Shown piece by piece: positions 4,790 to 40,826 of a DNA stretch of 64,000 nucleotides; the first letter of the stretch is position 1; the number at the start of each line of letters is the position of its first letter. Where the stretch lies: NCBI RefSeq assembly GCF_053078305.1, contig NZ_CP166879.1; one strand, written 5' to 3'. Both the position numbers and the translations under genes were made by a program. The notes beneath the pieces are model-generated. The model did not search any database and was not told where the DNA came from. It saw only the letters and a list, made by a program, of their open reading frames with translations.

Positions 4790-4804
4790 AACACTTCTTT
4801 TTCG

Positions 4805-4905: not shown

Positions 4906-4906
4906 G

Positions 4907-5287: not shown

Positions 5288-5375
5288 TTCATACTTACCT
5301 TTTTGTACGTACTTACTAAAAGTAAGTTTAGGTGTTAGCGTATTTAAACTCAAGACAAAACGATGGAGACTTCCC

Positions 5376-6236: not shown

Positions 6237-6334
6237 TTAATTAAAGTGGCATCCTCCCGCATCCTCTCTGATAATGACGGGATGCCGGGAGCAATCATGT
6301 CTGCTTCCTGAACTTTCTTCTGACAGATCAATGG

Positions 6335-7309: not shown

Positions 7310-7416
7310 CACGCTGGCAGTGAGTTAAATAAGCCTCTGCTACGTAAGGGTTATAGCTTTTGCCTTAAAGATGCATTTAGAATACATCTTATCTTATTAA
7401 GAATGAGGTATCAGCT

Positions 7417-8079: not shown

Positions 8080-8086
8080 TCTAAAA

Positions 8087-8111
8087 GCTGGATGGCATTG
8101 CGCCATCCAGC
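8087..8111 (-). terminator. Hairpin terminator between ytfE and cycA
   Basis: GCTGGATGGC-ATTGC-GCCATCCAGC perfect inverted repeat, T-run on minus strand. Confidence 0.55.
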
Positions 8112-8123
8112 ATGATAATGCGG

Positions 8124-9536
8124 TTATTTCCGCAGTTCAGCAGCCCGCTTCTTACCAATAAACAACCAGCCCAGCCCCAGTGCGATAAACCACAGCGGGG
8201 TGACCAACAGCGCCTGGCGAGTGTCATCTTCCAGTGTCAGCAACACGACCACGAACACAAAGAACGCCATACATACCCAGCACATCAGCTTGCCGAGCGG
8301 CATCTTGTAGATCGACTTCTCATGCAGATGAGGACGCTGTTTGCGGTATACCAGGTACGAGCAAAGGATAATTGTCCAGACGAACATAAACAGAATCGCG
8401 GAAACGGTTGTAATCATCGTGAACGCGCCAATCACGCTAGGATTCACATACAACATCACCACGCCGCCGAGCAGACAGATACACGAGAAGGTCAACCCTT
8501 TCGCGGGTACTGCGCGCTTAGAAAGTTTAGCGAACGCTTTCGGTGCCACACCTTCCTGCGCCAGACCAAACAGCATACGGCTGGTAGAGAAGACGCCGCT
8601 GTTAGCGGAAGACGCCGCAGAGGTCAGCACCACAAAGTTGATCACGCTTGCGGCAGCAGGCAGACCCACCAACACGAACAGTTCAACAAACGGGCTCTTC
8701 TCCGGGACTACCGAACTCCACGGCGTCACGGACATAATCACAATCAGCGCGAAGACGTAGAACATAATGATACGGATCGGAATGGAGTTAATCGCGCGTG
8801 GCAGTGATTTCTCTGGATCTTTGGTTTCCGCAGCTGTTGTACCTACCAGCTCAATCCCCACGAAAGCGAAAACCGCTATCTGGAATCCGGCAAAGAAGCC
8901 ACTTAAACCTTTCGGGAACCAGCCGCCGTCATTCCACAAATGCGCGAATGACGCTTCCACACCAGTCGGTGACTGAAAGTGCATCGCCACCATGACCAGG
9001 CCGACGACAATCAGCGACACAATGGCGACGATTTTGATCATCGCAAACCAGAACTCCATCTCACCGAACATTTTCACGGTGGCGAGGTTAAGCGTCAGCA
9101 GCAGCACTATCACCGCCAGCGAGGCGACCCAGTCGGAGAGATCGGGGAACCAGAACTGAGCATAAGCCGTGATCGCCACCACGTCTGCCATACCGGTTAC
9201 AACCCAGCAGAACCAGTAAGTCCAGCCGGTGAAATATCCTGCCCACGGCCCGAGTAAATCGGAAGCGAAGTCACTAAAAGATTTGTATTCCAGATTCGAA
9301 AGCAGCAATTCCCCCATTGCCCGCATCACGAAAAAGAGCATAAAACCGATGATCATATAAACGAAAATGATCGACGGCCCGGCAAGGCTAATCGTTTTGC
9401 CGGACCCCATAAACAACCCCGTACCAATGGCACCGCCAATGGCAATAAGCTGAATATGTCGGTTTGTGAGATTGCGCCGTAGCGACTGTTCAGCCGGAGC
9501 CTGATCATCGGCAACGACTTTTACCTGATCTACCAT
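8124..9536 (-). CDS. cycA: D-serine/D-alanine/glycine APC-family transporter CycA
   Basis: 470-aa ORF, amino-acid permease family; recognised as CycA. Confidence 0.95.
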   Translation of the reverse strand: MVDQVKVVADDQAPAEQSLRRNLTNRHIQLIAIGGAIGTGLFMGSGKTISLAGPSIIFVYMIIGFMLFFVMRAMGELLLSNLEYKSFSDFASDLLGPWAGYFTGWTYWFCWVVTGMADVVAITAYAQFWFPDLSDWVASLAVIVLLLTLNLATVKMFGEMEFWFAMIKIVAIVSLIVVGLVMVAMHFQSPTGVEASFAHLWNDGGWFPKGLSGFFAGFQIAVFAFVGIELVGTTAAETKDPEKSLPRAINSIPIRIIMFYVFALIVIMSVTPWSSVVPEKSPFVELFVLVGLPAAASVINFVVLTSAASSANSGVFSTSRMLFGLAQEGVAPKAFAKLSKRAVPAKGLTFSCICLLGGVVMLYVNPSVIGAFTMITTVSAILFMFVWTIILCSYLVYRKQRPHLHEKSIYKMPLGKLMCWVCMAFFVFVVVLLTLEDDTRQALLVTPLWFIALGLGWLFIGKKRAAELRK

Positions 9537-16356: not shown

Positions 16357-16632
16357 ATGTTCAGTCGTGTTTTAGCCCTTCTGGCTGTGCTTTTGCTAAG
16401 TGCAAATACATGGGCAGCCATTGAAATTAATAACCACCAGGCCAGAAATATGGACGATGTGCAAAGCTTAGGCGTGATTTATATCAATCATAATTTCGCC
16501 ACTGAAAGCGAAGCACGTCAGGCATTAAATGAAGAAACAGATGCGCAAGGCGCAACGTACTACCACGTAATTCTGATGCGGGAACCGGGGAGTAACGGCA
16601 ATATGCACGCCAGCGCGGATATTTATCGCTAG
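16357..16632 (+). CDS. yjfY: DUF1471 (YdgH/BhsA/McbA-like) periplasmic protein YjfY
   Basis: ORF 16288-16632; start set at MFSRVLALL with signal peptide (91 aa). Confidence 0.8.
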   Translation: MFSRVLALLAVLLLSANTWAAIEINNHQARNMDDVQSLGVIYINHNFATESEARQALNEETDAQGATYYHVILMREPGSNGNMHASADIYR

Positions 16633-16760: not shown

Positions 16761-17447
16761 CTACTTCTGCCCGTAATAAGCGTTAGGACCGTGTTTACGC
16801 ATGAAGTGTTTATTCATCAGGAAGCTGTCGATGTGATTCAGTTGTGGGTTAATGCCGCGCGCAATCCACGCCATTTTCGCCACTTCTTCCATCACCACCG
16901 CGTTATGCACCGCATCGTGGGCATCTTTCCCCCAGGCGAACGGTCCGTGCTGATACACCACAATTCCCGGCGTATGCAGCGGCTCGGCGTTGCCCAGCGT
17001 TTCGATAATCACTTTGCCGGTGTTCAGTTCATACTCGCCCTGCACCTCTTCTTCGCTTAACCCGCGCGTACACGGAATGTCGCCAAAGAAGTAGTCAGCG
17101 TGCGTGGTGCCTAACGCCGGGATCGCCAGCCCCGCCTGCGCCCATGCGGTGGCATGAGTGGAGTGGGTATGGACAATGCCGCCAAGCGACGGGTAACGAC
17201 GGTAGAGTTCGAGATGCGTCGCAGTGTCGGAAGATGGGCGATACTCCCCTTCCACCACCTTGCCGCTCATATCAACCACCACCATATCGGCCGCTTTCAT
17301 GGTTTCGTAGGCAACGCCGCTGGGCTTGATCACCACCAGCCCGCGTTCGCGGTCGATAGCGCTGACGTTGCCCCAGGTAAAGGTCACCAGCCCGTAGCGC
17401 GGCAGCTCCATGTTGGCTTCAAATACCTGCTGTTTTAGCTTTTGCAT
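16761..17447 (-). CDS. ulaF: L-ribulose-5-phosphate 4-epimerase UlaF
   Basis: ORF 16761-17495; start set at MQKLKQQVF (228 aa); class II aldolase/epimerase fold; start overlaps ulaE stop. Confidence 0.9.
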
Positions 17448-18259
17448 TATGCCGCCTCCACCATGCCCGCTTTCGCCATGCGCGCTTTCACCCAATCACG
17501 CGCTTTCGCCACTTCTGCCGCCGGGTCTTCCGCCGTTTCGCTCCACATCTCAATCAGGTACGGCCCGCAATAGCCACTCTGTTTGAGCGTTTCGAAACAA
17601 CGTTCGAAATCCACTACACCTTCGCCAAACGGCACGTTTTTGAAGACGCCAGGTTTGGTGTCTTTCACATGTACCGCGACGATATGCCCGATTCCGGCCT
17701 GCAACTCCATCTGCACATCGTTGTCCCACGCCGACAGGTTGCCGATATCCGGGTAGAGCTGGAACCACGGATTGTTGAGATAGTGCGCGTAGCCCAGCGC
17801 CTTGCTGATGGAGTTCATCAACGGATAATCCATGATCTCCATCGCCAGCGTCACCTGCGCGCGGCTCGCCATCTCAACGCTCTCTTTCAGGCCGTCACGG
17901 AAACGACGACGCGTTTCGTTATTGGCTTCCTGATAATAAACGTCATAGCCCGCCAGCTGGATCACGCGAATACCAACGTCCTGGGCGAACTGGATAGCTT
18001 TACGCATAATCTCCAGCCCCTGCGCCCGCACCGCGTCATCTTCGCTACCCAGTGGGAAACGACGATGAGCAGAAAGGCACATGGACGGCACGCGCACGCC
18101 GGTTTCAACAATCGCATTGACCAGCGCCAGACGCTGCTCGCGGCTCCAGTCGAGGCGCGACAGGCGCTCGTCCGTTTCATCTACCGACATCTCGACAAAA
18201 TCGAAGCCCAACGTTTTTGCCAGTTGCAGGCGTTCCAGCCAGCACTCCCCAGCGGGGAG
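17447..18259 (-). pseudogene. ulaE: L-ribulose-5-phosphate 3-epimerase UlaE, 5'-truncated (first ~14 codons and start missing)
   Basis: Frame matches UlaE from ...[24 protein letters not shown] onward; upstream the frame hits a stop and island sequence begins. Confidence 0.85.
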
Positions 18260-18436
18260 GATTTATTAAGCCCTGTTTATTTCCACTGATTTCAACAGAA
18301 CTCTCTCCACCCCCTTTAACTCACTTTAAAATAAGGTATTATCATAAATTCTTTTACTCTGGACGTAAACCATCCTCCATGATCATCAATATAATTTTGG
18401 GGGCTACTCTGGGGGCTACTTTTCGGAGTTAACATC

Positions 18437-19618
18437 ATGCCACTTACTGTTCGGCAAATTGAGTCGGCCAAACCTGCTGACAAGGATTACAAACTTTCTG
18501 ATGGTCAAGGACTTTACCTTCTTATCAAGAAATCTGGCGCTCGTTACTGGAATCTGAAGTATCGATTTGCGGGTAAAGAAAAGAAATTGGTGATTGGTGT
18601 CTATCCAGGTATATCACTGGCTCTGGCGCGTCAGAAACGGGATGAAGCACGTAAACTCCTCGCTGAAGGAAAAGATCCTTCATATGAAAAACAGGCAAGT
18701 AAACATGCACTAAGAGAAAGTATTGCATGCACATTTTGTACTCTTGCAGAAGAGTTGTTCACACATATGGCTTGTCGTTGGACTGCGGGTTATTTAGCGG
18801 ACCAGCGTGCAAGATTCGAGAATCATATTAATCCCATGCTAGGGAAACGTCCTGTGGCTGATATTCGCCCCTTGGAAATATTGAATGCACTGAGGGTTAT
18901 AGAAAAGAATGGCAAACTTGAAGCGTTACGTAAGACTCGTCAGCTCTGTTCTCAAATATTTGATTACGCCATTGCGACGGGGCGCGCCACTATTAACCCA
19001 GCATCGACTCTCAACAGTGTTGTTCTTCATCCAGAAAAACAGCAGAGACGGATGCTATCTGAAGAACAGTTAGGCGCTTTCATGTACCAAATGAAAGTTT
19101 CAGGCAATTTTATGTCTCTGGTAACGCAAATACTGGTTCTAACTGCTGTTAGAACGGGAGAATTACGCCTTGCTACTTGGGATGAAATTGATTTTACCAA
19201 TGCCTTATGGGTAATCCCAAAAGAGAGAATGAAAATGCGAAGGCCGCATGTTGTTCCACTTTCTCATCAGACTCAAATGTTATTGAAAGAGATAAAAATA
19301 ATCACAGCTCCCCGTAACTCCGAGCTGGTTATTCCTGGTGTATACAGAGATAATCAACCTCGTGGTCGCGGTTGCATCAACGAGTTTCTTCAACAAGTTG
19401 GCTGGCATACATTCACTACAGCTCATGGTTTTCGGCATACTTTCAGTACCATTCTCCATGACCATGATTTCAGCTCTGCCTGGATTGAACTCCAGCTTGC
19501 CCATGTTGATAAAAACATCATGCGCGGCACCTACAACCACGCACAGTATCTCGATGGTCGTCGTGAAATGATGCAATGGTACGCTGACTACATTGATTCA
19601 CTTTCTGAGCAGGCCTGA
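18437..19618 (+). CDS. int: P4-type (phage) tyrosine integrase
   Basis: 393-aa ORF; N-terminal DUF4102-like MPLTVRQIESAKP...KDYKLSDGQGLYL and C-terminal catalytic region (HGFRHT...Y). Confidence 0.9.
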   Translation: MPLTVRQIESAKPADKDYKLSDGQGLYLLIKKSGARYWNLKYRFAGKEKKLVIGVYPGISLALARQKRDEARKLLAEGKDPSYEKQASKHALRESIACTFCTLAEELFTHMACRWTAGYLADQRARFENHINPMLGKRPVADIRPLEILNALRVIEKNGKLEALRKTRQLCSQIFDYAIATGRATINPASTLNSVVLHPEKQQRRMLSEEQLGAFMYQMKVSGNFMSLVTQILVLTAVRTGELRLATWDEIDFTNALWVIPKERMKMRRPHVVPLSHQTQMLLKEIKIITAPRNSELVIPGVYRDNQPRGRGCINEFLQQVGWHTFTTAHGFRHTFSTILHDHDFSSAWIELQLAHVDKNIMRGTYNHAQYLDGRREMMQWYADYIDSLSEQA

Positions 19619-19653
19619 TGAATGAAAGTTCAGTGATGCAGAAATAATGAATA

Positions 19654-19688
19654 ACCATCCGGCTTTGGAGGCCGGATGGTTTTATTTA
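19654..19688 (+). terminator. Rho-independent terminator after int
   Basis: ACCATCCGGC-TTTGGAG-GCCGGATGGT hairpin followed by T-run. Confidence 0.75.
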
Positions 19689-19900
19689 TGTTTTCTTTTT
19701 TATTTGCTCACATCTTCTGAACTGCCCCTGCAGACAATAATCTGAACACCAGATATAGAGCCACTCATGAAATAAAGCATAATTATATTGAATAACCAAT
19801 TACATTTTTTGTTACATCCATTCCATATCTGTCGCTGGTTGATTGCCAGCGACGCGTCGTGATGCATGATAGGAGAATGAGATAATAAGAGAAGAAAAGT

Positions 19901-20530
19901 ATGATTCGGGTTGTGCTGGTGGATGACCATGTGGTGGTGCGCTCTGGTTTCGCACAGTTACTCTCTCTGGAAGACGATCTGGAGGTCATTGGTCAGTACA
20001 GTAGTGCCGCACAGGCATGGTCGGCATTAATCTGTGATGACGTCAATGTTGCCGTCATTGATATTGCTATGCCGGACGAAAACGGCCTCAGTTTGGTTAA
20101 GCGCCTGCGTGCACAAAAACCGCAATTCCGCGCCATTATTCTTAGCATTTATGACACGCCAACCTTTGTACAAAGCGCTCTGGATGCTGGTGCCAGTGGC
20201 TATTTGACCAAACGCTGTGGGCCGGAAGAGTTAGTGCAGGCGGTGCGCTCTGTCGGTATGGGAGGGCATTATCTCTGCGCCGATGCAATTCGGGCTTTAC
20301 GCGGCGGCGGGCAACCCGCCCAGGCACTGGAAATTCTCACCCCACGAGAACGTGAAGTGTTTGATTTATTAGTCAAAGGCGACAGTGTAAAAGAGATTGC
20401 CTTTAAGCTCGAACTCAGCCATAAAACGGTACATGTACATCGCGCCAACGTGCTGGGAAAACTGAACTGTCATAGCACCATTGAGCTGGTGCATTTTGCA
20501 CTCAACCACCATCTGCTGGCGGGGCATTAA
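19901..20530 (+). CDS. UhpA-like NarL/LuxR-family response regulator (paralog, not core uhpA)
   Basis: 209-aa ORF; receiver domain (VVLVDDH...D) plus LuxR HTH; ~50% similar to UhpA by eye. Confidence 0.85.
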   Translation: MIRVVLVDDHVVVRSGFAQLLSLEDDLEVIGQYSSAAQAWSALICDDVNVAVIDIAMPDENGLSLVKRLRAQKPQFRAIILSIYDTPTFVQSALDAGASGYLTKRCGPEELVQAVRSVGMGGHYLCADAIRALRGGGQPAQALEILTPREREVFDLLVKGDSVKEIAFKLELSHKTVHVHRANVLGKLNCHSTIELVHFALNHHLLAGH

Positions 20531-22071
20531 TGTCGCGTAACCTTCGTCATTGGGTGATTTCGCTGTTTATTGTGCTGGCCTGGGGAAGCGGCTGGCTGAT
20601 GTTGTGGACGCTCAGCTTTTATCTGACCAATAACGGTCAACAGGCAGTGTTATTTCTGCCGCACGGAGTTTACCTCGCTTTTCTTATTTTGCACTCTCGC
20701 CGTTACTGGCCTGCGTTGGTGCTCCCCCCTTTGCTGATGATGTTCTGGCTGCACAGCGAGCAACTGTTGAACGGCTATCTCATGCTGGCAACGCCGGTTA
20801 TTAGCCTGCTTCCTGCCATCATTGCACAAAACGTCTGGCACCGTTTTCCACTTTACTGGCAGCGTCTGACGTTGCTGTTAGCCTCAGTAACAGCAGCTTC
20901 ATTGCTGAATACAGCCATGCTAACCCCTTTTATGTCAGGCCCAATAATGCTGCCCGGTCTGACCTCATTTACCGGCGGCGTATTGTTGACGCCGTTTGTC
21001 TATCTTATCTTTGAGTTTCTGCGCCAGCAGCATCGCTATCAGCTTCTGAGACTCGATACGCATAATCCCCCCTTGCGAACCTCTTTAATCATCTGGTGTA
21101 GCCTATTTTTTATTATTGGTATCGGCACCCAGATGGTGTTGTCGCCTGAAATCGAACGCCTACTGCTGATCGTGGTATTTCTACCCAATGTAGTCATGGC
21201 CTGGAAATTTGGCTGGCAAGGGGGCGTACTCTCGGGGCTTTTGGGCAGCATGATGATCACTATTGCCCGCCAGATTGGTGTGGGCTTTAGTAACCTGGTG
21301 GAACTGGAGATTTTTCTCGCAACCCAGGCATTGCTGGGAATTGGCCTGGGCATTGCCATTAGTCGGCAGCAACATCTGGCGCTAAACCTGCATCATTACC
21401 GTCAGCGACTGGAGGCAGAACTGGCAGCACGGCGGGCATTGGCTGAAAAGCTGATCCATACCGAGGAAGACACGCGTAAAAGCCTGGCTCGCGAGCTGCA
21501 CGACGAAATCGGTCAGAACATTACCGCCATTCAGATCCAGTCGCAACTGGTGACGCGGGCACGCGATCCGGCGCAAGTTCATTCCGCAGCCAGCCAAATC
21601 AACGAACTCGCCCGCCGCATTCATCTCTCCACCCGCCAGTTGCTGCGCCAGTTGCGGCCCCCCGCGCTTGATGAACTGACATTCCGCGAAGCATTACTTC
21701 ATCTGATTAATGAATTTGCCTTTAGTGAACGCGGCATTCATTGCCAGTTTACCTATCAACTAACCACCACGCCAGAAAACGAAACGGTTCGCTTTACACT
21801 GTATCGGTTATTGCAGGAGTTACTCAATAACGTCTGTAAACACGCTGAAGCCAGCGAAGTGACGATTATTCTGCGCCAGCAGGGAGAGATATTGCACCTG
21901 GAGGTCAGCGACAACGGTATAGGAATCGCCAGCGGGAAAATGACCGGATTTGGCATTCAGGGGATGCGTGAACGCGTCAGTGCCCTGGGCGGCGACTTAA
22001 CGCTCGAAAAACATAACGGTACGCGGGTAATTGTTAACCTGCCCACATTTTTGCAACAAATCGCCGGATAA
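20530..22071 (+). CDS. UhpB-like membrane sensor histidine kinase
   Basis: 513-aa ORF; N-terminal multi-TM domain, H-box (LARELHDEIGQ) and HATPase region; start overlaps upstream stop (TAATG). Confidence 0.85.
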   Translation: MSRNLRHWVISLFIVLAWGSGWLMLWTLSFYLTNNGQQAVLFLPHGVYLAFLILHSRRYWPALVLPPLLMMFWLHSEQLLNGYLMLATPVISLLPAIIAQNVWHRFPLYWQRLTLLLASVTAASLLNTAMLTPFMSGPIMLPGLTSFTGGVLLTPFVYLIFEFLRQQHRYQLLRLDTHNPPLRTSLIIWCSLFFIIGIGTQMVLSPEIERLLLIVVFLPNVVMAWKFGWQGGVLSGLLGSMMITIARQIGVGFSNLVELEIFLATQALLGIGLGIAISRQQHLALNLHHYRQRLEAELAARRALAEKLIHTEEDTRKSLARELHDEIGQNITAIQIQSQLVTRARDPAQVHSAASQINELARRIHLSTRQLLRQLRPPALDELTFREALLHLINEFAFSERGIHCQFTYQLTTTPENETVRFTLYRLLQELLNNVCKHAEASEVTIILRQQGEILHLEVSDNGIGIASGKMTGFGIQGMRERVSALGGDLTLEKHNGTRVIVNLPTFLQQIAG

Positions 22072-22143
22072 CCAGGAAAAAGTCTTAGTCATCCCGGATT
22101 TTCTCTCATCCTCTTTCACTTTCATTTTCATATAGTCAGCAAC

Positions 22144-23460
22144 ATGGAGACGACCATGCACGCGCGTTCAGCGAGAGAGATTAATCAATGCTACCGGACA
22201 TTACGTCCACGATTGCTGATGTGCATGATTATTGGCTACGCCGCATTTTATCTGACGCGAAAAAGCGTGAATTACGTCCTTCCGGCGCTGCAAACCGACC
22301 TCGGACTGGATAAAGGCGACATTGGCCTGCTGGGTTCACTGTTTTATCTCAGCTACGGATTGTCGAAATTTACCGCCGGACTGTGGCATGACAGCCACGG
22401 ACAACGCGGTTTTATGGGTATCGGCTTGTTCGCCACTGGGCTATTGAACGTGGTGTTTGCCTTTGGCGAATCACTTACGCTTCTGCTTGTGGTCTGGACA
22501 CTGAACGGATTTTTTCAAGGCTGGGGGTGGCCACCGTGTGCCCGCTTACTGACCCATTGGTATTCCCGTAATGAACGTGGTTTCTGGTGGGGCTGCTGGA
22601 ATATGTCGATCAACATTGGCGGAGCGATTATTCCGCTGATTAGCGCCTTTGCCGCCCACTGGTGGGGCTGGCAGGCCGCGATGCTGACACCGGGGATAAT
22701 CAGCATGGCATTAGGGATCTGGTTAACGCTACAACTCAAAAGCACGCCCCAGGAAGAGGGATTACCGACAGTTGGTCACTGGCGTCACGATCCGCTGGAG
22801 TTACGTCAGGAACAACAAAGTCCGCCGATGGGGCTGTGGCAAATGTTGCGCACCACCATGCTGCAAAATCCGCTGATCTGGCTACTGGGTGTCTCTTATG
22901 TACTTGTTTATGTGATCCGGATTGCGCTAAACGACTGGGGCAATATCTGGCTGACGGAAAGCCACGGCGTCAACCTGCTCAGCGCCAACGCCACGGTAAT
23001 GCTGTTTGAAGTAGGCGGCTTACTCGGCGCGTTATTTGCCGGATGGGGTTCGGATTTGCTGTTTAGCGGGCAGCGAGCCCCCATGATTTTGCTGTTTACC
23101 CTTGGGTTGATGGTTTCGGTCGCTGCACTCTGGTTGGCACCGGTTCATCACTATGCCCTTCTGGCTGTGTGCTTTTTTACTGTGGGCTTTTTTGTCTTTG
23201 GCCCGCAAATGCTGATTGGACTTGCGGCAGTGGAATGTGGACACAAAGCTGCGGCGGGTTCAATCACCGGATTTCTCGGCCTGTTCGCCTATCTCGGTGC
23301 GGCGCTGGCAGGCTGGCCGTTGTCGCTGGTTATCGAACGCTACGGCTGGTCGGGAATGTTCAGTTTACTCTCGGTCGCCGCAGTACTTATGGGTTTACTG
23401 CTGATGCCGTTACTGATGGCGGGCATCACCACCACTCACGCTCGAAGGATAAAACAATGA
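22144..23460 (+). CDS. UhpC-like MFS sugar-phosphate sensor/transporter
   Basis: 438-aa ORF clearly homologous to UhpC/UhpT MFS proteins (FFQGWGWPPCARLLTHWYSRNERG). Confidence 0.85.
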   Translation: METTMHARSAREINQCYRTLRPRLLMCMIIGYAAFYLTRKSVNYVLPALQTDLGLDKGDIGLLGSLFYLSYGLSKFTAGLWHDSHGQRGFMGIGLFATGLLNVVFAFGESLTLLLVVWTLNGFFQGWGWPPCARLLTHWYSRNERGFWWGCWNMSINIGGAIIPLISAFAAHWWGWQAAMLTPGIISMALGIWLTLQLKSTPQEEGLPTVGHWRHDPLELRQEQQSPPMGLWQMLRTTMLQNPLIWLLGVSYVLVYVIRIALNDWGNIWLTESHGVNLLSANATVMLFEVGGLLGALFAGWGSDLLFSGQRAPMILLFTLGLMVSVAALWLAPVHHYALLAVCFFTVGFFVFGPQMLIGLAAVECGHKAAAGSITGFLGLFAYLGAALAGWPLSLVIERYGWSGMFSLLSVAAVLMGLLLMPLLMAGITTTHARRIKQ

Positions 23461-24488
23461 AAATGCCCCTTACCTCTACTCTGATTGCTTCTGCCGTTGC
23501 GCTGGCAACCTTAACGGGTGCCGCGCAGGCAAAAGGCCGGCTGGTGGTCTATTGCAGCGCCACTAATGAAATGTGTGAGACCGAAACCAAAGAGTTTGGC
23601 GAGAAATATGATGTGAAAACCTCGTTTATCCGCAACGGCTCCGGTAGCACCCTGGCAAAAGTCGATGCTGAAAAGAAAAACCCACAGGCTGACGTCTGGT
23701 ACGGCGGCACTTTAGACCCGCAGTCGCAGGCCGGCGAGATGGGCCTGTTACAGGCATATAAATCGCCTAACCTTGAACAGATCATGGAAAAATTCCGCGA
23801 TCCGGCAAAAGTGAAAGGAAACCTTTCCTCCGCCGTTTATGTGGGGATCCTCGGGTTTGGCGTCAACACAGAGCGTCTGAAAGAGAAAAACCTGCCTGTG
23901 CCGAAGTGCTGGAAAGATCTCACCAAACCTGAATATAAAGGCGAAATTCAGATTGCCGATCCACAAAGTTCCGGTACCGCCTACACCGCGCTGGCTACCT
24001 TTGCGCAGCTGTGGGGGGAAGATCAGGCCTTTGATTATCTAAAACAACTTAACGCCAACGTCTCCCAGTACACCAAATCAGGCATTGCCCCGGCACGTAA
24101 CGCCGCCCGCGGCGAAACGGCGATTGGTATTGGTTTCCTGCATGACTACTCGCTGGAAAAAGAACAGGGCGCACCACTGGAGTTGATTTCCCCGTGTGAA
24201 GGTACGGGCTACGAAATAGGCGGCGTCAGCATTCTGAAAGGTGCGCGCAACCTCGACAACGCCAAACTGTTCGTGGACTGGGTATTATCAAAAGAAGCTC
24301 AGGAACTGGCGTGGAAGAAAGGGAAATCTTATCAGATCCTGACCAATACCACCGCCGAAACGTCGCCAAATTCGCTGAAGCTCGACGACCTGAAATTAAT
24401 CAACTACGACATGGATAACTACGGTTCAACTGATGTTCGTAAGGCATTAATTAATAAATGGGTCAGCGAAGTGAAGATGGGTAAATAA
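23457..24488 (+). CDS. afuA: AfuA/FbpA-type periplasmic substrate-binding protein
   Basis: ORF 23169-24488 over-extended; start at MKMPLTSTL (signal peptide) overlapping uhpC-like stop (ATGA); 343 aa. Confidence 0.88.
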   Translation: MKMPLTSTLIASAVALATLTGAAQAKGRLVVYCSATNEMCETETKEFGEKYDVKTSFIRNGSGSTLAKVDAEKKNPQADVWYGGTLDPQSQAGEMGLLQAYKSPNLEQIMEKFRDPAKVKGNLSSAVYVGILGFGVNTERLKEKNLPVPKCWKDLTKPEYKGEIQIADPQSSGTAYTALATFAQLWGEDQAFDYLKQLNANVSQYTKSGIAPARNAARGETAIGIGFLHDYSLEKEQGAPLELISPCEGTGYEIGGVSILKGARNLDNAKLFVDWVLSKEAQELAWKKGKSYQILTNTTAETSPNSLKLDDLKLINYDMDNYGSTDVRKALINKWVSEVKMGK

Positions 24489-24556
24489 ACCCGTATTGTG
24501 TGCACTTGCCGGGTGCAGCACAGACGCCTGCCCCGGCCAACCATACCGGAACTGCT

Positions 24557-26635
24557 ATGTCACAGACACTTGCACTCCATCCCGCGAAAAAGCGGGATGC
24601 GATTTTCCTTTGGGTTTTGCTGGGCTGGCTGGCATTTATCCTGTTGCCGAGCTGGAGCCTCGATTATGGTCTGCTGGAGTCCACGAGTGATGAGATCCTC
24701 GAGGCGTACAGCTGGTCGCATTTTAATATCAGCTGGCTGTGGTATTTACTCCCGAGTTTGCTGCTGGTTCGCCCGTTTAATGAGGCCAAACGCGAGCAGC
24801 GTAGCCGTCATTATTTTGATGCCGGCTGGGCATTGCTTTGTATAGCGTTTATGGTCATCAGTGCCACCATCGTTGGCCGCGGTCTAGGCTACGCCGCCAT
24901 CGTGCTGTTTATCGAATTAAGCGCGATAATGACGCTGGCCTTAACCCGCCTCGAATGGCTGGGTGGCGACCGCTTTGTGATCGGCTCGCTGATTGCGATT
25001 GTGGCGCTGATTGGCATTTTTATCGTCTGGCCGAGCATCGCCATTTTTATCCCGATGTTCGCCAACGACGCGGGAGAGTTCGCCCCACTGGCGTTTATGA
25101 ATGTGCTCTCGCAGGCCCATATCATTCAGGTGATCGTCAACTCTATCGTCTTATCGATAGCGGTGGGTATTGGCTGCACTTTCTTCGGTCTGGTGCTGGC
25201 GATATATACCACGCGCATCGCTAAACGCAGCGCCGTAATCGGCCGCATCTTTTCCATTCTGCCAATTGTCACGCCACCGTTTGTGGTCGGCTTAGGCGTT
25301 ACGCTCATGATGGGGCGCTCCGGCTACATAACGGAATTTATGGTGGAGTGGTTTGGGCTGACCAACACCAACTGGCTGTATGGTTTTACCGGGATCTGGC
25401 TGGCACAGGTCCTGGCATTTACGCCAATGGCTTTTATGATCCTCGATGGGGCCATTAAAACCATTCATCCCTCGCTGGAAGAAGCCTCCTACACCCTGCG
25501 CGCCAGCCGCTGGCAAACCTTTAGCGGTGTGTTTGTGCCGTTGTTAAAGCCCGCGCTTGCCAATGCCTTTTTAATCGTCGTGGTGCAGTCACTGGCTGAC
25601 TTCAGTAACCCGCTGGTGCTTGGCGGCAACTTCGACGTACTGGCGACGCAAATTTACTTCTACATTACCGGCTCGCAGCTGGATTATCAGGCCGCCAGCA
25701 CCCTTGGCGCTTTCCTGCTGCTGTTCTCGCTACTGGTGTTCTGCGTCCAGTATATGTGGATTGGTAAACGCTCTTACGTCACGGTTTCCGGAAAGTCCTA
25801 CCGCGGCGATGTCCAGCCACTACCGGTCACCCTGGTGTGTAGCGTGGTCGCCATACTTGCGATATGGATTGCCTTTAACGCCCTGCTCTATGGCAGCATT
25901 TTCTACGGCAGCTTCACCGTGAACTGGGGCGTGGACTACACCCTAACGCTGGATAACTTTATCAAGTTATTTGGTCAGGGGATGAGCGACGGCGCGTGGC
26001 CTTCACTGTTAGATACCTTGCTCTACGCCGGGATTGCCGCACCCATTACCGCTATTTTTGGCCTGCTCATCGCCTGGGTGGTGGTGCGCCAACAATTCAA
26101 AGGCAAAAAGACCATCGAGTTCACCACCATGTTGTGCTTTGCCGTACCGGGTACAGTGGCGGGTGTCTCGTATATTCTTGCCTTTAATAGCGCCCCAGTC
26201 TATCTCACCGGAACGGCAGCAATTGTGATTATCTCGATGGTGATGCGTAACGTTCCGGTGGGTATTCGCGCCGGGATTGCAGGTCTGGGGCAGATCGACA
26301 AATCGCTGGATGAAGCCTCACTTAGCCTGCGTGCAGGTTCCCTGCGAACCATTACGCACATTTTACTGCCGTTATTACGCCCAGCTATTCTCTCGGCCCT
26401 GATTTACAGCTTTGTGCGGGCTATCACGACGGTCAGCGCCATCGTCTTTCTCGTCACGCCGGACACCCGCGTGGCAACCGCCTACATCCTTAACCGCGTA
26501 GAAGACGGCGAATATGGCGTAGCCATCGCCTACGGTTCGATTCTGATCGTGGTGATGCTGGCGATTATTTTCCTCTTTGACTGGCTGATCGGTGAAGCAC
26601 GTATTTCCCGTTCTAAAGCCAAAAACCAGGCGTAA
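24557..26635 (+). CDS. afuB: AfuB ABC transporter permease (two fused permease domains)
   Basis: ORF 24500-26635; start at MSQTLALHP gives 692 aa; duplicated ABC permease domains. Confidence 0.88.
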
Positions 26636-26646
26636 TGGAGCGCACT

Positions 26647-27693
26647 ATGAGTCAGAAAAATTTTGTGGAACTGCGCAACGTCACTAAACGATTCGGCAGT
26701 AATATGGTTATCGACAATATCAATCTCACCATCCCACAAGGGCAAATGGTGACGCTGCTCGGTCCTTCCGGATGCGGCAAAACCACCATTCTGCGTCTGG
26801 TTGCCGGGCTGGAAAAACCGAGCGAAGGGCAAATTTTTATAGATGGCGAAGATGTCACGCATCGTTCCATTCAGCAACGCGATATCTGCATGGTGTTTCA
26901 GTCATACGCTCTGTTCCCACATATGTCGCTGGGCGAAAACGTTGGCTATGGGCTGAAAATGCTTGGCGTGTCGCGTAATGAAGTGAAGCAGCGGGTGAAA
27001 GATGCGCTGGCAATGGTGGATCTGGAAGGATTCGAAGACCGCTATGTCGATCAGATTTCCGGCGGTCAGCAACAGCGTGTGGCTCTGGCCCGTGCGTTGA
27101 TCCTCAAGCCAAAGGTGCTGCTGTTTGATGAGCCGTTAAGTAACCTCGATGCCAACCTGCGCCGCAGTATGCGCGATAAGATCCGCGAGCTGCAAAAGCA
27201 GTTTAATATCACGTCGCTCTACGTGACTCACGATCAAAGTGAAGCTTTCGCGGTGTCCGACACTGTACTGGTGATGAATAAAGGTCACATCATGCAGATC
27301 GGTTCACCGCAGGAGCTCTATCGTCAGCCCGCCTCCCGCTTTATGGCAAGTTTTATGGGCGACGCCAACCTGTTCCCGGCGAACTTTAGCGAAGAGTATG
27401 TCGATATCTACGGTTATCGCCTGCCGCGCGCGGCGTATTTCCCGGTGCAAGGTAGAGGCACCGTCGGCGTTCGCCCGGAAGCCATCACCTTAAGCAATCA
27501 CGGCGAAGAGAGTCAGCGTTGTGTTATTCGCCATGTCGCTTACATGGGGCCGCAGTACGAAGTGACCGTAGAATGGCATGGTCAGGAGATTTTATTGCAA
27601 GTCAACGCCACTCGTTTACAGCCCGATACTGGTGAGCACTATTACCTCGAAATCCATCCTTACGGGATGTTTGTTTTAGCGGATTCGGCATAA
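26647..27693 (+). CDS. afuC: AfuC ABC transporter ATP-binding protein
   Basis: ORF 26635-27693; start at MSQKNFVEL (348 aa); Walker [10 protein letters not shown], signature LSGGQQQR, Walker B LLFDEP. Confidence 0.9.
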
Positions 27694-27725
27694 AAATAGC
27701 GCATAAAAGGTCCCCTCCAGCTCAG

Positions 27726-30808: not shown

Positions 30809-32692
30809 TATAGAAAGATATTTTTATGCATGACCTACCTGAATTTGCTCCGGGTAGAGGTTATAAATAAAAATTGAATCACGACAAACACAATATTCAT
30901 AGTGTGGCGATGCCTACGCCAGCAAAAATAGCGCCAATAATGTTGGGAATATAATAGACACCAGACACACAGGCATCTCACTCCTTAACAAACAATAATC
31001 ATGATGTTTACTTTTACTTCACTAACTGTTTGCGCCTAAAGTGCGCACACTTAACCATTCAATAACAAATGGCAATATCCATAGCCATACGACTTTACCT
31101 TGTAATGTTCGGTATTTCTTTATAATTATTCTGGGAAATCTATCATTTATTTTTAAAATCAAATTATCTTGTTGTTTAAAAATAAGTTCACATACTTTAT
31201 CATCTTCTTCCACCATCAACATCTCTGCACACTTAAACATTTCAGAACATTCCTTTAGCACAGAAGAGTGATTATATGTCCAGTTCCCAGGCAATAATGC
31301 TTATGGATATTTAATTCATAATTTAGAGAATATTTTGTAATAATATTTGGCAGTATTCAGAAATACCTGAAAAATCATACTATACAGCCCCAGGGAATAG
31401 ATGAAGATTCTAAAAAAGCATTTCAACAATATATGCTTGTTAAAAATCCATATCGAAATGCCGTTGCAGCATTAATATATGCCTCATTCATAAAATGTAA
31501 AAGAGCAAGCTCGTACCAGTAGGGGGAAAATTCATTGATATGTCCTGTCAATACGTACAGAGCCCTGTCATGCTTGCCAGCACGTAACAATTCCGTCCCC
31601 AGTAACCAGCGTGTCCCCTGATTATTCTCAGGGTTATATGTTAGTATTTTATCAATGAGTATAACGGCATCCTGATGACGCTGTAAATGAACATTCGCCA
31701 GAATTGCAGCATAAAGAGCGCAAATGCATATGCCAGATAAGCGTGAATATCAATGATGTCAGGAGCATGTCAGGCAAGACGCCTGAGTTTGTTGACGTAA
31801 TTTGTTTCGTTTATTTCATCACTATCGTATGCGTCAAGAGTTTTTTCAAACTCATCCCGAAATGAGCCAAGCCTGGTTTCAGGAAATAAGAAATACCCCT
31901 GGTTATTGTTCACTTAAAAGTATAATTTGTAATTCAAATCCTGAGCCTGTAAAACGGGGAGTAACATATTCTACTCTGAAGAGAATAAAAGTCGTGATGC
32001 GATGTATCAAGCCCGGATTGTAATCCCAGATTAACATAGATCACAAAACAACTTATTCTTCACTAACGTCAAGATAAATATCGTTGTATGCCCTATCACG
32101 ACTACGAATACCAGCAAGATACAACTGACATACGGAAAGATACCACGTTTTTTACTCCCGAAAATAACGCTAAAAAGCTACTTCCCCATCGTTTGTCCTT
32201 AGTATTGTCAGCGCCAACAATGTGGGCTGGCATGATAAAGCTGTCTAGGAAATCGTTCACCTCCTCAGCGGACAATCCAAATGGTGATTGTCTCTGTTAA
32301 ACGTTTATTTTGAAGGTCGACTGAATAAGGTGATGACGCTGTAGAATTTTTCACGTGACACAGAATTTTGAACGCTTTCTCTTACAATATTTCAATGTTT
32401 CTATCAGTATTCGCCGGAAGAAGTCATCGACCAAATCATCCCAGTCGTCTCGCACCACTGACCATTCATGGTTGACATGTGGTGGAAATCCGCTTCTACA
32501 GAAACCATTTTTTATTCGCAAAACCGAACACGCCATACGGATAGCTGTTAACTGGCATGCCGAGGCAGTCGTTATTTATATTTAGTTTTGTCAATAATCT
32601 TTATTTTTTGTAAAAGGTAAATATAAATTATTCTCATTATTGTTTGTATTTGTGTATTGTCTTGCCGGTTAACATGATCGGAGATTAGTAAT

Positions 32693-34783
32693 ATGCGAAT
32701 AACCACTCTGGCTTCCGTAGTCATTCCCTGTCTCGGATTTTCAGCCAGCAGCATAGCTGCTGCAGAGGATGTGATGATTGTCTCGGCATCCGGCTATGAG
32801 AAAAAGCTGACTAACGCAGCCGCCAGTGTTTCTGTGATTAGCCAGGAGGAATTGCAGTCCAGCCAGTACCACGATCTGGCGGAGGCTCTGAGATCAGTAG
32901 AGGGTGTGGATGTTGAAAGTGGTACGGGTAAAACCGGTGGGCTGGAAATCAGCATCCGAGGAATGCCAGCCAGTTACACGCTGATACTGATTGATGGTGT
33001 TCGTCAGGGCGGAAGCAGTGACGTGACTCCCAACGGTTTTTCTGCCATGAATACCGGGTTCATGCCCCCTCTGGCCGCCATTGAGCGTATTGAGGTTATC
33101 AGGGGGCCGATGTCCACACTGTATGGCTCTGATGCGATGGGCGGTGTGGTGAATATCATTACCAGAAAGAATGCAGACAAATGGCTCTCTTCCGTCAATG
33201 CAGGGCTGAATCTGCAGGAAAGCAACAAATGGGGTAACAGCAGCCAGTTTAATTTCTGGAGCAGTGGTCCCCTTGTGGATGATTCTGTCAGCCTGCAGGT
33301 ACGCGGTAGCACACAACAGCGTCAGGGCTCATCGGTCACATCACTGAGCGATACAGCAGCCACGCGTATTCCTTATCCCACGGAGTCACAGAATTATAAT
33401 CTTGGTGCACGTCTTGACTGGAAGGTGTCGGAGCAGGATGTGCTCTGGTTTGATATGGATACCACCCGGCAGCGTTATGATAACCGGGATGGGCAACTGG
33501 GGAGTCTGACGGGGGGATATGACCGGACCCTGCGCTATGAGCGAAACAAAATTTCAGCTGGCTATGATCATACTTTCACCTTCGGAACATGGAAATCGTA
33601 TCTGAACTGGAACGAGACAGAAAATAAAGGTCGTGAGCTCGTACGCAGTGTACTGAAGCGCGACAAATGGGGGCTTGCCGGTCAGCCGCGGGAGCTTAAG
33701 GAATCGAACCTTATCCTGAATTCATTACTGCTTACCCCTCTGGGAGAATCTCATCTGGTTACGGTGGGGGGCGAGTTTCAGAGCTCGTCCATGAAAGACG
33801 GAGTTGTCCTTGCCAGCACAGGTGAAACTTTCCGGCAGAAAAGCTGGTCGGTATTTGCTGAGGATGAGTGGCATCTCACGGATGCACTTGCGCTGACTGC
33901 GGGCAGCCGCTATGAACATCATGAGCAATTCGGGGGACACTTCAGTCCGCGTGCATATCTGGTCTGGGATGTGGCAGATGCCTGGACGCTGAAAGGCGGT
34001 GTGACCACGGGATATAAGGCACCCAGAATGGGGCAGCTACATAAAGGGATTAGTGGTGTGTCCGGGCAGGGAAAAACAAATCTACTTGGTAACCCCGACC
34101 TGAAGCCGGAAGAGAGCGTCAGTTATGAGGCTGGGGTGTATTACGATAACCCCGCCGGTCTGAATGCCAATGTCACAGGTTTTATGACTGACTTCTCCAA
34201 CAAGATTGTCTCTTATTCCATAAATGATAACACCAATAGCTATGTAAACAGCGGAAAGGCCCGGTTGCACGGTGTGGAATTTGCCGGCACATTGCCGCTG
34301 TGGTCAGAGGATGTCACGCTGTCACTGAATTACACCTGGACCCGAAGTGAACAACGTGATGGTGATAACAAAGGTGCGCCGCTGAGTTATACCCCTGAAC
34401 ACATGGTGAATGCGAAACTGAACTGGCAGATCACCGAAGAGGTGGCATCATGGCTGGGTGCCCGTTATCGCGGGAAAACACCACGTTTCACCCAGAATTA
34501 TTCGTCACTGAGCGCTGTACAGAAGAAAGTGTATGATGAGAAAGGAGAATACCTGAAAGCCTGGACGGTGGTGGATGCAGGTCTGTCGTGGAAGATGACG
34601 GATGCCCTGACGCTGAATGCTGCGGTGAATAACCTGCTCAACAAGGATTACAGTGACGTGAGCCTGTTCAGTGCCGGTAAGAGTACGCTGTATGCCGGTG
34701 ATTACTTCCAGACGGGATCATCAACAACGGGATATGTGATACCTGAGCGAAATTACTGGATGTCGCTGAACTATCAGTTCTGA
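32693..34783 (+). CDS. iha: TonB-dependent outer-membrane receptor, Iha-like (IrgA homologue adhesin / siderophore receptor)
   Basis: 696-aa ORF; signal peptide, TonB box (DVMIVSAS), plug domain and C-terminal aromatic beta-barrel terminus (NYQF); length and sequence recalled as Iha. Confidence 0.7.
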   Translation: MRITTLASVVIPCLGFSASSIAAAEDVMIVSASGYEKKLTNAAASVSVISQEELQSSQYHDLAEALRSVEGVDVESGTGKTGGLEISIRGMPASYTLILIDGVRQGGSSDVTPNGFSAMNTGFMPPLAAIERIEVIRGPMSTLYGSDAMGGVVNIITRKNADKWLSSVNAGLNLQESNKWGNSSQFNFWSSGPLVDDSVSLQVRGSTQQRQGSSVTSLSDTAATRIPYPTESQNYNLGARLDWKVSEQDVLWFDMDTTRQRYDNRDGQLGSLTGGYDRTLRYERNKISAGYDHTFTFGTWKSYLNWNETENKGRELVRSVLKRDKWGLAGQPRELKESNLILNSLLLTPLGESHLVTVGGEFQSSSMKDGVVLASTGETFRQKSWSVFAEDEWHLTDALALTAGSRYEHHEQFGGHFSPRAYLVWDVADAWTLKGGVTTGYKAPRMGQLHKGISGVSGQGKTNLLGNPDLKPEESVSYEAGVYYDNPAGLNANVTGFMTDFSNKIVSYSINDNTNSYVNSGKARLHGVEFAGTLPLWSEDVTLSLNYTWTRSEQRDGDNKGAPLSYTPEHMVNAKLNWQITEEVASWLGARYRGKTPRFTQNYSSLSAVQKKVYDEKGEYLKAWTVVDAGLSWKMTDALTLNAAVNNLLNKDYSDVSLFSAGKSTLYAGDYFQTGSSTTGYVIPERNYWMSLNYQF

Positions 34784-36586: not shown

Positions 36587-37071
36587 TATTAGCTCCTTCT
36601 GATGCCATTCTATTTCAGGAAGGAGTGTCCGTTAAACTCAGGCTACCTCACATCAGATGCCAACGCAACATTCCCTGCCATAAGCGCAGCCAGAACGCCT
36701 GTTACAACTAAACTATTCCTGGTGATATTGCTCATTCTCTTTCTCCATTTGTCGAGGATTTGGGCGTTGATTTTCGACGAGCTCCAGTTGCAACTCCAGT
36801 CTTAAGGTTATATCGGGATAGCACACAAGTGTTACACGCATAAACAAAAAATACCCAAAAAGTATTATTTCATAACATTTATTCATGGAAGATAACAATG
36901 AAACGATTCAGCTATATTTTTTAAACTAAAAAATACTTTATAAGAACATCCCAATTTTGGAGGCGATACTCATTCTCCCCCTGATAAATAAACACTCTCG
37001 TCCGACAGGGCGTGGAAACTATCAATAACCACAGTAATGATGCTGACTTTGTTTTCGTTTAAGGAAATGAC

Positions 37072-38628
37072 ATGCACGATTACCTGCTTTTTTTACTGGG
37101 ACTTACCCCCCTTCTGGCGATGATCATTTTGATTCTGAAAGTCAAAATGCCCATACACTATTCTGTGCTTAGCACTCTCCTGCTCACGCTAATCCTTGGA
37201 GGGGTTTTCTGGCAGACGCCAGTTATGGATATGGGATCTGCTGTGGTATACGGCGCAATCAAAGGTTTGTGGCCGATTGTGATTGTCATCCTTGCTGCCA
37301 TTTACAGCTATAACCTGATGAATGCGACAAAAAGCATGGATATTCTGAGAAATGTTCTAGCCAGCGTGAGCGATGATAAACGTATCCAGGTTCTTCTTAT
37401 CTCATGGTGTTTTGGCGGATTTCTTGAGGCGGCCGCCGGATACGGTACAGCGGTAGCAATCCCCATAGGTATACTCATTGCACTGGGCTTTAACCCACTA
37501 AAAGCAGCGATTGCATCACTGGTTGCTAATACAGTCCCTACAGCGTTTGGGGCAGTCGGTATACCTGTCTCCGTGCTTGCTGAACAAGTTAATTTACCTG
37601 TAACCACACTCAGCGGGACGATTATTCTTCAGCTGGCACTGTTCAACATTCTGCTCCCCTTCGTTATCGTCACGATTATCGGTGGAGGTATGAAAGCTAT
37701 ACGAGGCGTAGGGTTAATTACCCTGATGTGCGGTATTAGCACATTGATACCTCAGTATCTGGTGGCTGTTAATCTTGGCGCAGAGCTCCCGGCTTTCGCA
37801 GGAAGTCTTGTCAGTCTGATCGTTATAGTCTTTATGGCAAAAAACCGTAAAGAAAAAACAGAACCTGAATTTCTTATTGAGAGTTCAGCAGATAGCGCCA
37901 GCGCACTTTCATACTCTCGTGGGGCGTTGTTACGTGCGTGCTCAATCTACATTCTGATCTTTCTGTTCATTCTGCTTTGCTCTCCACTGTTCCCGACGAT
38001 AAAAAGTGCAGTGTCTCAGATTGCCTCGTCACTCACCTTCTCTCTGAGTAACGGCAGCAATCTGTCGATGAAAATTGAATGGATCGCAACCCCCGGTGTT
38101 CTGATTATCATTGCCAGTGTTATTGGCGGCTTGATACAGAAAGCATCCCTGTCATGCCTGTTAAACGTATTTGTCAGCACGGTAAAACAACTTAAAAACT
38201 CCATTATTGCCATTTCTGCGATTGTTGCCATGGCAACGGTAATGGATGTCTGTGGGTTGATTGGCACTCTGGCACAGAGCCTTGTGGATCTGACTGGTGG
38301 GGCCTACCTCTTCATTGCTCCGGTTATCGGCGCTCTTGGTACATTTGTTACTGGTAGTGACACAAACTCCAACATTCTGTTTGGTAAATTGCAGACTACT
38401 GCGGCTGAAAAATTGCATGTGGACCCGCTCTGGCTGGCTGCCGCAAATACATCTGGCGCAACAGGCGGCAAAATGATTTCTCCTCAGAGTATTGCTATCG
38501 CTGTTTCAGCCACCCGTATGGATGGTCAGGGCAGCGTAATCATGTCAGGAACACTGAAGTACTGCTTTGCTTATATTGTTATTCTTGGACTGAAAGTAGG
38601 CCTTGTCTACCACCTGTTCATGGCCTGA
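37072..38628 (+). CDS. lctP: L-lactate permease family (LctP) transporter
   Basis: 518-aa polytopic membrane protein with LctP-family features. Confidence 0.8.
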   Translation: MHDYLLFLLGLTPLLAMIILILKVKMPIHYSVLSTLLLTLILGGVFWQTPVMDMGSAVVYGAIKGLWPIVIVILAAIYSYNLMNATKSMDILRNVLASVSDDKRIQVLLISWCFGGFLEAAAGYGTAVAIPIGILIALGFNPLKAAIASLVANTVPTAFGAVGIPVSVLAEQVNLPVTTLSGTIILQLALFNILLPFVIVTIIGGGMKAIRGVGLITLMCGISTLIPQYLVAVNLGAELPAFAGSLVSLIVIVFMAKNRKEKTEPEFLIESSADSASALSYSRGALLRACSIYILIFLFILLCSPLFPTIKSAVSQIASSLTFSLSNGSNLSMKIEWIATPGVLIIIASVIGGLIQKASLSCLLNVFVSTVKQLKNSIIAISAIVAMATVMDVCGLIGTLAQSLVDLTGGAYLFIAPVIGALGTFVTGSDTNSNILFGKLQTTAAEKLHVDPLWLAAANTSGATGGKMISPQSIAIAVSATRMDGQGSVIMSGTLKYCFAYIVILGLKVGLVYHLFMA

Positions 38629-38677
38629 GAAAAAACAACAAAAGGACGTGGAATATTAATCAACAGGAGAAATTTCT

Positions 38678-39397
38678 GTGAATGTTAACTTTTTCGTCAC
38701 CTGCATTGGTGATGCGTTTAAATCCCGGATGGCACAAAAGAGTGTGCTGTTACTGGAGCAATTGGGTTGCAATGTCCATTTCCCCGAAAAGCAGGGATGT
38801 TGTGGTCAGCCAGCGATAAATGGCGGTTATGTTCGTGATGCCATCCCGGGCATGAAAAATCTCATATCTTCGCTGGAAGAGAATGACTGGCCGGTAGTAT
38901 CTCCTGCCGGGTCATGCACTTACACGATAAAAAATTACGCTCGCTATCTCAGTGAAGAACCTGAGTGGGCGGCACGAGCTGAAAAAGTGGCTGAACGCCT
39001 GCATGATTTGACATCATTTATAGTAAATCATCTTGGCATCACAGATGTTGGGGCAAAACTCAATGGTCGCGCTGTGTACCATCCCTCCTGCAGCCTTTCC
39101 CGTAAGCTGGGTGTAACCAGAGAGCCGCTTTTGCTACTTGAGAATGTACAGGGGCTTGAGCTACTGCCGTTTCACGCTCAGGAAACGTGCTGCGGGTTTG
39201 GCGGCACATTCTCTGTAAAAATGGCGGAGATCTCTGGTGAAATGGTGAAAGAGAAAGTCGGGCATATTATGGATGTTAAACCTGATTTTCTTATCGGGGC
39301 TGACGCCAGTTGCCTGCTAAACATCGGCGGTCGGCTTAACCGTGAAGGGCATCCTGTAAAAGTGATGCATATTGCTGAAGTCCTGATGCACAGATGA
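38678..39397 (+). CDS. lutA: Lactate utilisation protein A (LutA/YkgE-like, cysteine-rich CCG-domain Fe-S oxidoreductase)
   Basis: 239-aa ORF, GTG start with AGGAGA RBS; two CCG-type cysteine motifs (CCGQPA, CCGFGG). Confidence 0.82.
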   Translation: MNVNFFVTCIGDAFKSRMAQKSVLLLEQLGCNVHFPEKQGCCGQPAINGGYVRDAIPGMKNLISSLEENDWPVVSPAGSCTYTIKNYARYLSEEPEWAARAEKVAERLHDLTSFIVNHLGITDVGAKLNGRAVYHPSCSLSRKLGVTREPLLLLENVQGLELLPFHAQETCCGFGGTFSVKMAEISGEMVKEKVGHIMDVKPDFLIGADASCLLNIGGRLNREGHPVKVMHIAEVLMHR

Positions 39398-39407
39398 GGT
39401 AAACAGA

Positions 39408-40823: not shown

Positions 40824-40826
40824 TTT

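Follow-up and report, generated by a model that had tools for sequence, protein, structure and literature searches.

Positions 19901 to 27693 of the analysed stretch (64,000 nucleotides of contig NZ_CP166879.1, assembly GCF_053078305.1; hereafter the window) are filled by six co-directional open reading frames (ORFs) of the + strand, as given by the ORF list of the window. We read them, with a probability of roughly 0.68, as one cassette that senses and imports sugar phosphate, in which a UhpABC-type three-component sensor is joined to AfuABC, an ATP-driven importer of the ATP-binding cassette (ABC) type that replaces the antiporter UhpT. With the RefSeq chromosome of the E. coli strain GPEC1176 (chicken), the region shares 100% identity. 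Locus, genes and gene order have been known and annotated before, and a homologous module is characterised in Vibrio cholerae. [quoted passage not shown] Thereby, a revision of the fucose model published for the proteins FusK and FusR of enterohaemorrhagic E. coli (EHEC) becomes directly testable.

AfuA matched the sugar-phosphate-bound AfuA structures 4R72-4R75 with an E value of 2e-169 (76% identity to the Actinobacillus pleuropneumoniae protein) and the Vibrio structure 8X1A with 1e-172, as opposed to just 1e-8 to 1e-12 for ferric-binding proteins, whose structures matched with 4e-12 at best. In an alignment of 11 sequences including two solved structures, H229, D230 and E253 were invariant. 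These correspond to the residues coordinating the sugar, H205, D206 and E229, of Sit et al. (2015, PMC4546632), according to whom AfuA binds glucose-6-phosphate (G6P), fructose-6-phosphate (F6P) and sedoheptulose-7-phosphate (S7P) and a uhpT mutant is rescued on G6P or F6P through AfuABC. AfuABC of Citrobacter rodentium likewise transports sugar phosphates and aids colonisation, and loss of afuA impairs both colonisation and transmission of this organism (PMC4546632). AfuB showed two permease-domain matches per protein, and AfuC passed the FbpC/AfuC model NF008513 (694.6 bits, cut-off 496). From homology, the allele in the window would be predicted to transport G6P, F6P or S7P as well.

The legacy names afuABC and fbpC, the RefSeq designation of the ATPase as ferric ABC transporter ATP-binding protein FbpC and the label iron(III)-binding, given to AfuA homologues by several database sources, would suit a ferric-iron uptake system whose sensor is unrelated to the transporter. 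We rejected this reading because of the E values of AfuA and its invariant sugar residues; sugar-phosphate rather than iron transport was shown by Sit et al. (PMC4546632), too. It is therefore extremely improbable for the locus as a whole, and iron transport by AfuABC is effectively excluded. The first-pass annotation of this DNA had considered a specificity of AfuA for ferric iron only as an outcome that would refute its reading, and here E values and ligand residues point to a sugar-phosphate AfuA.

The first three genes had been taken in that annotation for a paralogous UhpA/UhpB/UhpC set, in agreement with the identities of 49.2, 37.6 and 52.9%, respectively, between their products and the K-12 proteins. 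The MFS protein passed the UhpC subfamily model NF008661 (589.7 bits, cut-off 564); its identity to UhpT is 30.8%. R45, K80 and R269 form the phosphate clamp of GlpT, and their equivalents were invariant in 78 MFS orthologues, which points to an organophosphate rather than a neutral sugar as the ligand of the receptor. Most likely this ligand would be glucose-6-phosphate.

An AfuA alignment scanned against one genome per species revealed relatives in 386 species, and the best 80 loci, covering about 29 Enterobacterales genera, were analysed. In every one of these 80 with enough flank, the order regulator-kinase-MFS-AfuA-AfuB-AfuC is kept on one strand. Five Vibrionaceae loci exhibited the same six-gene order. 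One of them is of the V. cholerae/metoecus type and adjoins napABC, which is the position of VCA0682-0687. Since all related loci examined share the order, the cluster is no chance arrangement. Conservation across the loci is lowest in the kinase (55-95%) and highest in AfuA (84-98%). Three Pasteurellaceae loci contain afuABC without any sensor genes; in those of Actinobacillus and Bibersteinia, afuABC lies beside genes of a mannose-family phosphotransferase system and of mannose-6-phosphate isomerase. In the complete genome of Leclercia adecarboxylata NCTC13032 (positions 2844-9340 of the locus), kinase, permease and ATPase match just in part, which suggests that the module is decaying in this strain. 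A restriction of the module to E. coli O157 was considered and rejected in view of its presence across about 29 Enterobacterales genera.

Within E. coli, at least 80% of the locus was detected in 518 of 5426 complete genomes, mostly as O157:H7-type copies of about 94% DNA identity. The core uhpABCT genes are present in 5417 of the 5426, so that the cassette is an extra copy. This bears out the first-pass view of a module carried on an island in addition to the core uhp system; the island here bears an integrase gene. Homology to O157 is confined to window positions 19807-27715, and the cassette therefore behaves as a discrete unit. Of this unit, K-12 retains only an afuB remnant and afuC.

The spacer between kinase and MFS gene (72 bp) could be aligned without gaps across 27 genera. 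Conserved blocks with mean major-allele frequencies of 0.87 to 1.00 are separated in this alignment by stretches scoring just 0.61-0.64. The first block is a 17-bp quasi-palindromic box, CCAGGAAAAAGTCTTAG, with a frequency of 0.91 (Table 1), which occurs outside this locus as CCAGGAATAATTCCTGG or CTAGGAATAATTCCTAG. It is followed by the near-invariant element TTTCTCTCATCC, within which TCTCAT is invariant, by a predicted -10 hexamer kept as TATAGT, TACAGT or TACACT at fixed spacing, and by GGAG at 22146-22149 with a frequency of 1.00. Because this invariant GGAG sits 6 nt in front of the ATG at 22156, we regard the latter as a likelier start of the MFS gene than 22144. A scan for -35/-10 consensus promoters did not call the MFS promoter, as is expected for an activator-dependent promoter having no -35.

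A weight matrix of the box found one strong site per locus, always just 3' of the kinase stop codon, and likewise in all Vibrionaceae loci. The same scan detected no box upstream of the regulator gene, where a different repeat is found, or of afuA, and none in the three Pasteurellaceae afuABC loci. In the 6.5-kb uhp locus of K-12, the matrix returned a single site between uhpC and uhpT, CCTGGAAAATTTCTTAG, which agrees with the box in 14 of 17 positions; a score as high was reached by only 1 of 300 shuffles. From this site to the -10 (TACAAT) there are 52 bp, compared to 51 bp in the window, and the TCTCA motif precedes the -10 by 27 nt in both promoters (TCTCAGG in K-12). The regions bound by UhpA in the uhpT promoter span about -80 to -32. 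The recognition-helix string KTVHVHRAN of the regulator is identical in UhpA, which binds two adjacent regions of that promoter (PMC4790336). From the conserved blocks, the likeness to the uhpT promoter and the identical helix, we predict that the spacer holds a regulator-dependent, activated promoter driving the MFS gene and afuABC.

Identical recognition helices, the 14 matching box positions and the near-universal core uhp genes of E. coli would also be compatible with a box used mainly by core UhpA. [quoted passage not shown] As the linked regulator, kinase and receptor are intact beside the box in every locus examined, which would be unexpected if they were dispensable, we judge such a use of the box to be quite improbable.

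Some loci deviate in or around this spacer. Raoultella planticola (locus L014, 8421-8690) and one metagenome-assembled genome (locus L083, 8543-8675) carry a repeat resembling the enterobacterial repetitive intergenic consensus (ERIC) between kinase and MFS gene; in R. planticola its insertion separates the TCTCATCC element from the -10 and splits the predicted promoter. In Entomohabitans teleogrylli, the box occurs once more as a strong copy, CCAGGAAAATTTCCTGG, at 16540-16556 of the locus (L050), about 2.3 kb 3' of afuC and 181 nt in front of phoC, encoding an acid phosphatase. It could be the mark of another regulon member or a chance match.

The first-pass annotation described the six genes as one operon and as a self-contained module for sensing and import. 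Homology, conserved ligand residues and the conserved promoter support the module well, and the gene run and its overlaps were found as described. Read directly from the letters, the regulator stop codon (20528-20530) shares one base with the kinase ATG (20530-20532) in TAATG, and the afuA ATG (23457-23459) overlaps the TGA of the MFS gene (23458-23460) in ATGA. Instead of the single transcription unit, there are probably two, regulator-kinase and MFS-afuABC, each with its own predicted promoter. Read-through from the first into the second is likely, because no strong terminator separates them.

Regulator and kinase would be transcribed from a conserved, constitutive-looking, sigma-70-like promoter upstream of the regulator gene. 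Both of its hexamer regions (ATTGCCAG and GCATCAT/GCATGAT) are kept at this place in about 26 genera; the consensus scan by which it was called is uninformative alone, as total matches were no more than in shuffles. A strong terminator-like hairpin further upstream, beyond the left edge of the O157 homology at 19807, would insulate the module against transcription from outside. About 30 nt in front of the -35, many genera exhibit a conserved direct repeat, TGTTACATCC(G/A)TTACATA (window 19770-19842), which may be a candidate site for another regulator. Furthermore, a palindrome, CGCTGGTTGATTGCCAGCG, is found in E. coli at 19833-19851.

Further 3' in the cassette, two stable RNA hairpins occupy the afuA-afuB junction. 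The second (24578-24599) is followed by a T run and was called terminator-like; it lies 21 nt inside the annotated afuB frame. These hairpins may act as a partial terminator or as a stabiliser favouring AfuA over the membrane parts and so set the AfuA:AfuBC ratio. The ORF list starts afuB with a GTG at 24500, upstream of the RefSeq start, and afuC has a further in-frame ATG at 26635.

Taken together, we propose that the weak, regulator-independent upstream promoter provides regulator and MASE1 kinase, translationally coupled via TAATG, and that read-through past the kinase gene probably keeps the receptor at a basal level. Sugar phosphate from outside, most likely glucose-6-phosphate, would bind the UhpC-like receptor, which would turn the kinase on, and the kinase would phosphorylate the regulator. 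The regulator would then bind the box, about 63 bp in front of the predicted start, and activate the promoter lacking a -35. From there the receptor gene, afuA, afuB and afuC would be transcribed, the receptor thereby exerting positive feedback on itself. AfuA would capture G6P, F6P or S7P in the periplasm, and AfuBC would import them at the cost of ATP.

Several points weigh against this picture. The position equivalent to GlpT H165, a His in GlpT, UhpT, UhpC and the Photobacterium module, is Ile in 78 of 78 Enterobacterales orthologues of the receptor. Such a replacement in the substrate site is a caution against taking the receptor for a mere copy of UhpC; its ligand or mode of action may differ. 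The best NCBIfam matches of regulator and kinase are UhpA (full length, 192 bits) and UhpB (model residues 6-497 of 499, 372 bits), respectively, both below the equivalog cut-offs of 258 and 408; the regulator is therefore a paralogue and not UhpA itself. RefSeq names the kinase a MASE1 domain sensor kinase. When 3 mismatches were allowed, the box had 1 match in the 64-kb window with 0.86 expected, so that the significance of the box rests on its cross-species conservation and its position. Furthermore, we infer the ligand of the receptor, the position of the start site and the role of the regulator as activator rather than repressor. Finally, EHEC FusKR has been published as a fucose sensor, with FusR said to repress z0461 and z0461 described as aiding fucose import (PMC11644481, PMC6199705).

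The last point concerns the very genes of the cassette, since fusR, fusK, z0461 and afuABC are published gene identities of EHEC O island 20 (OI-20; PMC4546632; PMC6199705). The first-pass annotation, sound as to the homology of sensor and importer, had not recognised this. If the published model described the main function, the kinase would sense L-fucose directly, the regulator would repress the LEE, the fuc genes and z0461, the MFS protein would help fucose import, and the adjacency of afuABC would be co-inheritance without regulatory meaning. Reviews and later studies report autophosphorylation of FusK on L-fucose and repression of ler by FusR (both as claims in PMC11644481), as well as fucose- and fusKR-dependent LEE repression and an influence of z0461 on the use of fucose (PMC11644481, PMC6199705, PMC12976359, PMC5120142), and the proteins studied share 95-99% identity with those of the window. 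However, six-gene order and box are kept in about 29 Enterobacterales genera and in Vibrionaceae, mostly bacteria of plants, insects or water, and this distribution contradicts claims in reviews of a confinement to O157:H7 or an origin from E. faecalis. The MFS protein, with its intact phosphate clamp, belongs to the organophosphate:phosphate antiporter branch and not to the fucose permease type. UhpB-type MASE1 kinases lack a sensing domain in the periplasm and depend on UhpC in the Uhp system (PMC4790336). In a matrix comparison, the published FusR site in ler showed no resemblance to the conserved box. We therefore consider fucose sensing unlikely as the main function, though it may coexist with a sugar-phosphate module in E. 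coli.

We tentatively suggest instead that FusK and FusR might belong, as kinase and regulator, to a sugar-phosphate sensor of the UhpABC type which needs the receptor Z0461 and whose native target, reached via the box, is the z0461-afuABC promoter. The effects on fucose use and the LEE would then be secondary and would arise from cross-talk, indirectly through metabolism or from a function added recently. In the literature searched, only Sit et al. (PMC4546632) name Afu and FusK, or FusK and UhpB, together; a functional link is not discussed there, the adjacency of afuABC to FusKR being merely remarked.

For gut and environmental bacteria, a sugar-phosphate cassette of this kind would offer a high-affinity, ATP-driven route for sugar phosphates without phosphate cost. 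Sensor genes seen as specific to O157 belong to an old and widespread module and are tied by its promoter to an importer, which suggests that the published fucose sensor really controls this importer. In work on EHEC, these genes are even regarded as a therapeutic target (PMC12976359). In pathogens, host-derived sugar phosphates may switch on afuABC.

Table 1. Genes and predicted regulatory elements of the cassette (window coordinates).
Feature	Position	Strand	Remarks
Terminator-like hairpin	19653-19681	+	13-pair stem, then T run; 3' of the island integrase gene
Predicted sigma-70 promoter of the regulator-kinase pair	19843-19870	+	TTGCCA, 16 nt, CATGAT; from consensus scan
Regulator gene	19901-20530	+	209 aa; UhpA paralogue, orthologue of EHEC FusR/Z0463
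Kinase gene	20530-22071	+	513 aa; MASE1-type histidine kinase, UhpB paralogue, orthologue of EHEC FusK/Z0462
17-bp quasi-palindromic box	22072-22088	+	predicted regulator site, centre at about -63; directly after the kinase stop
Near-invariant element	22100-22111	+	about -43 to -32; major-allele frequency 0.90
Predicted -10 of the MFS-afuABC promoter	22131-22136	+	TATAGT; major-allele frequency 0.87; no recognisable -35
MFS gene	22144-23460	+	UhpC-like MFS receptor, orthologue of EHEC Z0461
afuA	23457-24488	+	periplasmic sugar-phosphate-binding protein (by homology); signal peptide ends AQA
Two stable RNA hairpins, afuA-afuB junction	24508-24607	+	folding z-score -3.95
afuB	24557-26635	+	fused double permease, 692 aa; RefSeq start
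afuC	26647-27693	+	ABC ATPase, 348 aa; RefSeq start

The cassette lies just 3' of a tyrosine-recombinase gene beside ulaE, in a mosaic island with iha, insertion sequence (IS) elements and lactate-utilisation genes. This integrase gene (18437-19618) abuts ulaE (window 17447-19618 for both), for which RefSeq gives 271 aa, which we take to be shorter than the K-12 protein. No tRNA genes or integration sites were detected in the 64-kb window, and the island may therefore have used the ula operon and not a tRNA gene as its insertion site. Further along the island, iha (siderophore receptor/adhesin) and genes for L-lactate permease and lactate oxidation (lutABC) at 32677-34767 and 37056-41500 are flanked by copies of IS600, IS66 and IS2. 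On the - strand, a low-GC stretch between transposase remnants (42737-49242) encodes a 1652-aa AAA-domain protein and an adjacent hypothetical protein of 515 aa, which could have a defence or other mobile-element function.

Compared to known systems, the cassette is orthologous to OI-20 of EHEC O157:H7 (fusR z0463, fusK z0462, z0461, afuABC), with about 94% DNA identity, the same overlaps and an identical box. The comparison of gene order with the EHEC locus, proposed in the first-pass annotation, revealed an identical six-gene order, and the proteins from the regulator to AfuC share 97.1, 94.7, 99.3, 98.3, 96.7 and 97.7% identity. The counterpart in C. rodentium was grouped with O157 OI-20 as an orthologous cassette. 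The two E. coli settings differ, the six genes standing alone between tauA and frmR in O157 and in a large integrase-bearing island beside ulaE in the window.

The genes VCA0682-VCA0687 of V. cholerae are reportedly induced by hexose-6-phosphates through a UhpA homologue. All six genes of the cassette recur there in unchanged order, with the box CTAGGAAnnnTTCCTAG between kinase and MFS gene, but the Vibrio proteins are just 42-77% identical to those of the window. The Vibrio MFS protein is nearer to K-12 UhpC (57-61%) than to the window protein (50-53%), and the Photobacterium receptor, the sole one from Vibrionaceae with a readable motif, keeps the His where the window protein has Ile. Instead of the ATGA overlap, Vibrio has a spacer of 100-170 nt between the genes for the MFS and the substrate-binding protein. 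VCA0682-0687 have been published as an ABC importer of hexose-6-phosphates (Moisi et al. 2013, J Bacteriol 195:1800, cited in PMC4101255).

AfuABC of A. pleuropneumoniae (4R72-4R75), besides the 76% identity of AfuA, has the same sugar-coordinating residues and homologous permease and ATPase. Unlike the window, the Pasteurellaceae loci examined have neither sensor genes nor box beside afuABC.

K-12 UhpABC-UhpT comprises the same three types of sensor protein (38-53% protein identity) and the same one-base overlap between regulator and kinase gene, and its related promoter element lies at an equal distance to the -10. The output, however, is the UhpT antiporter in K-12 and an ABC importer in the window. 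The regulated promoter, too, is placed differently: in K-12 it follows uhpC, in the window it precedes the receptor gene, so that the receptor of the cassette would be self-induced.

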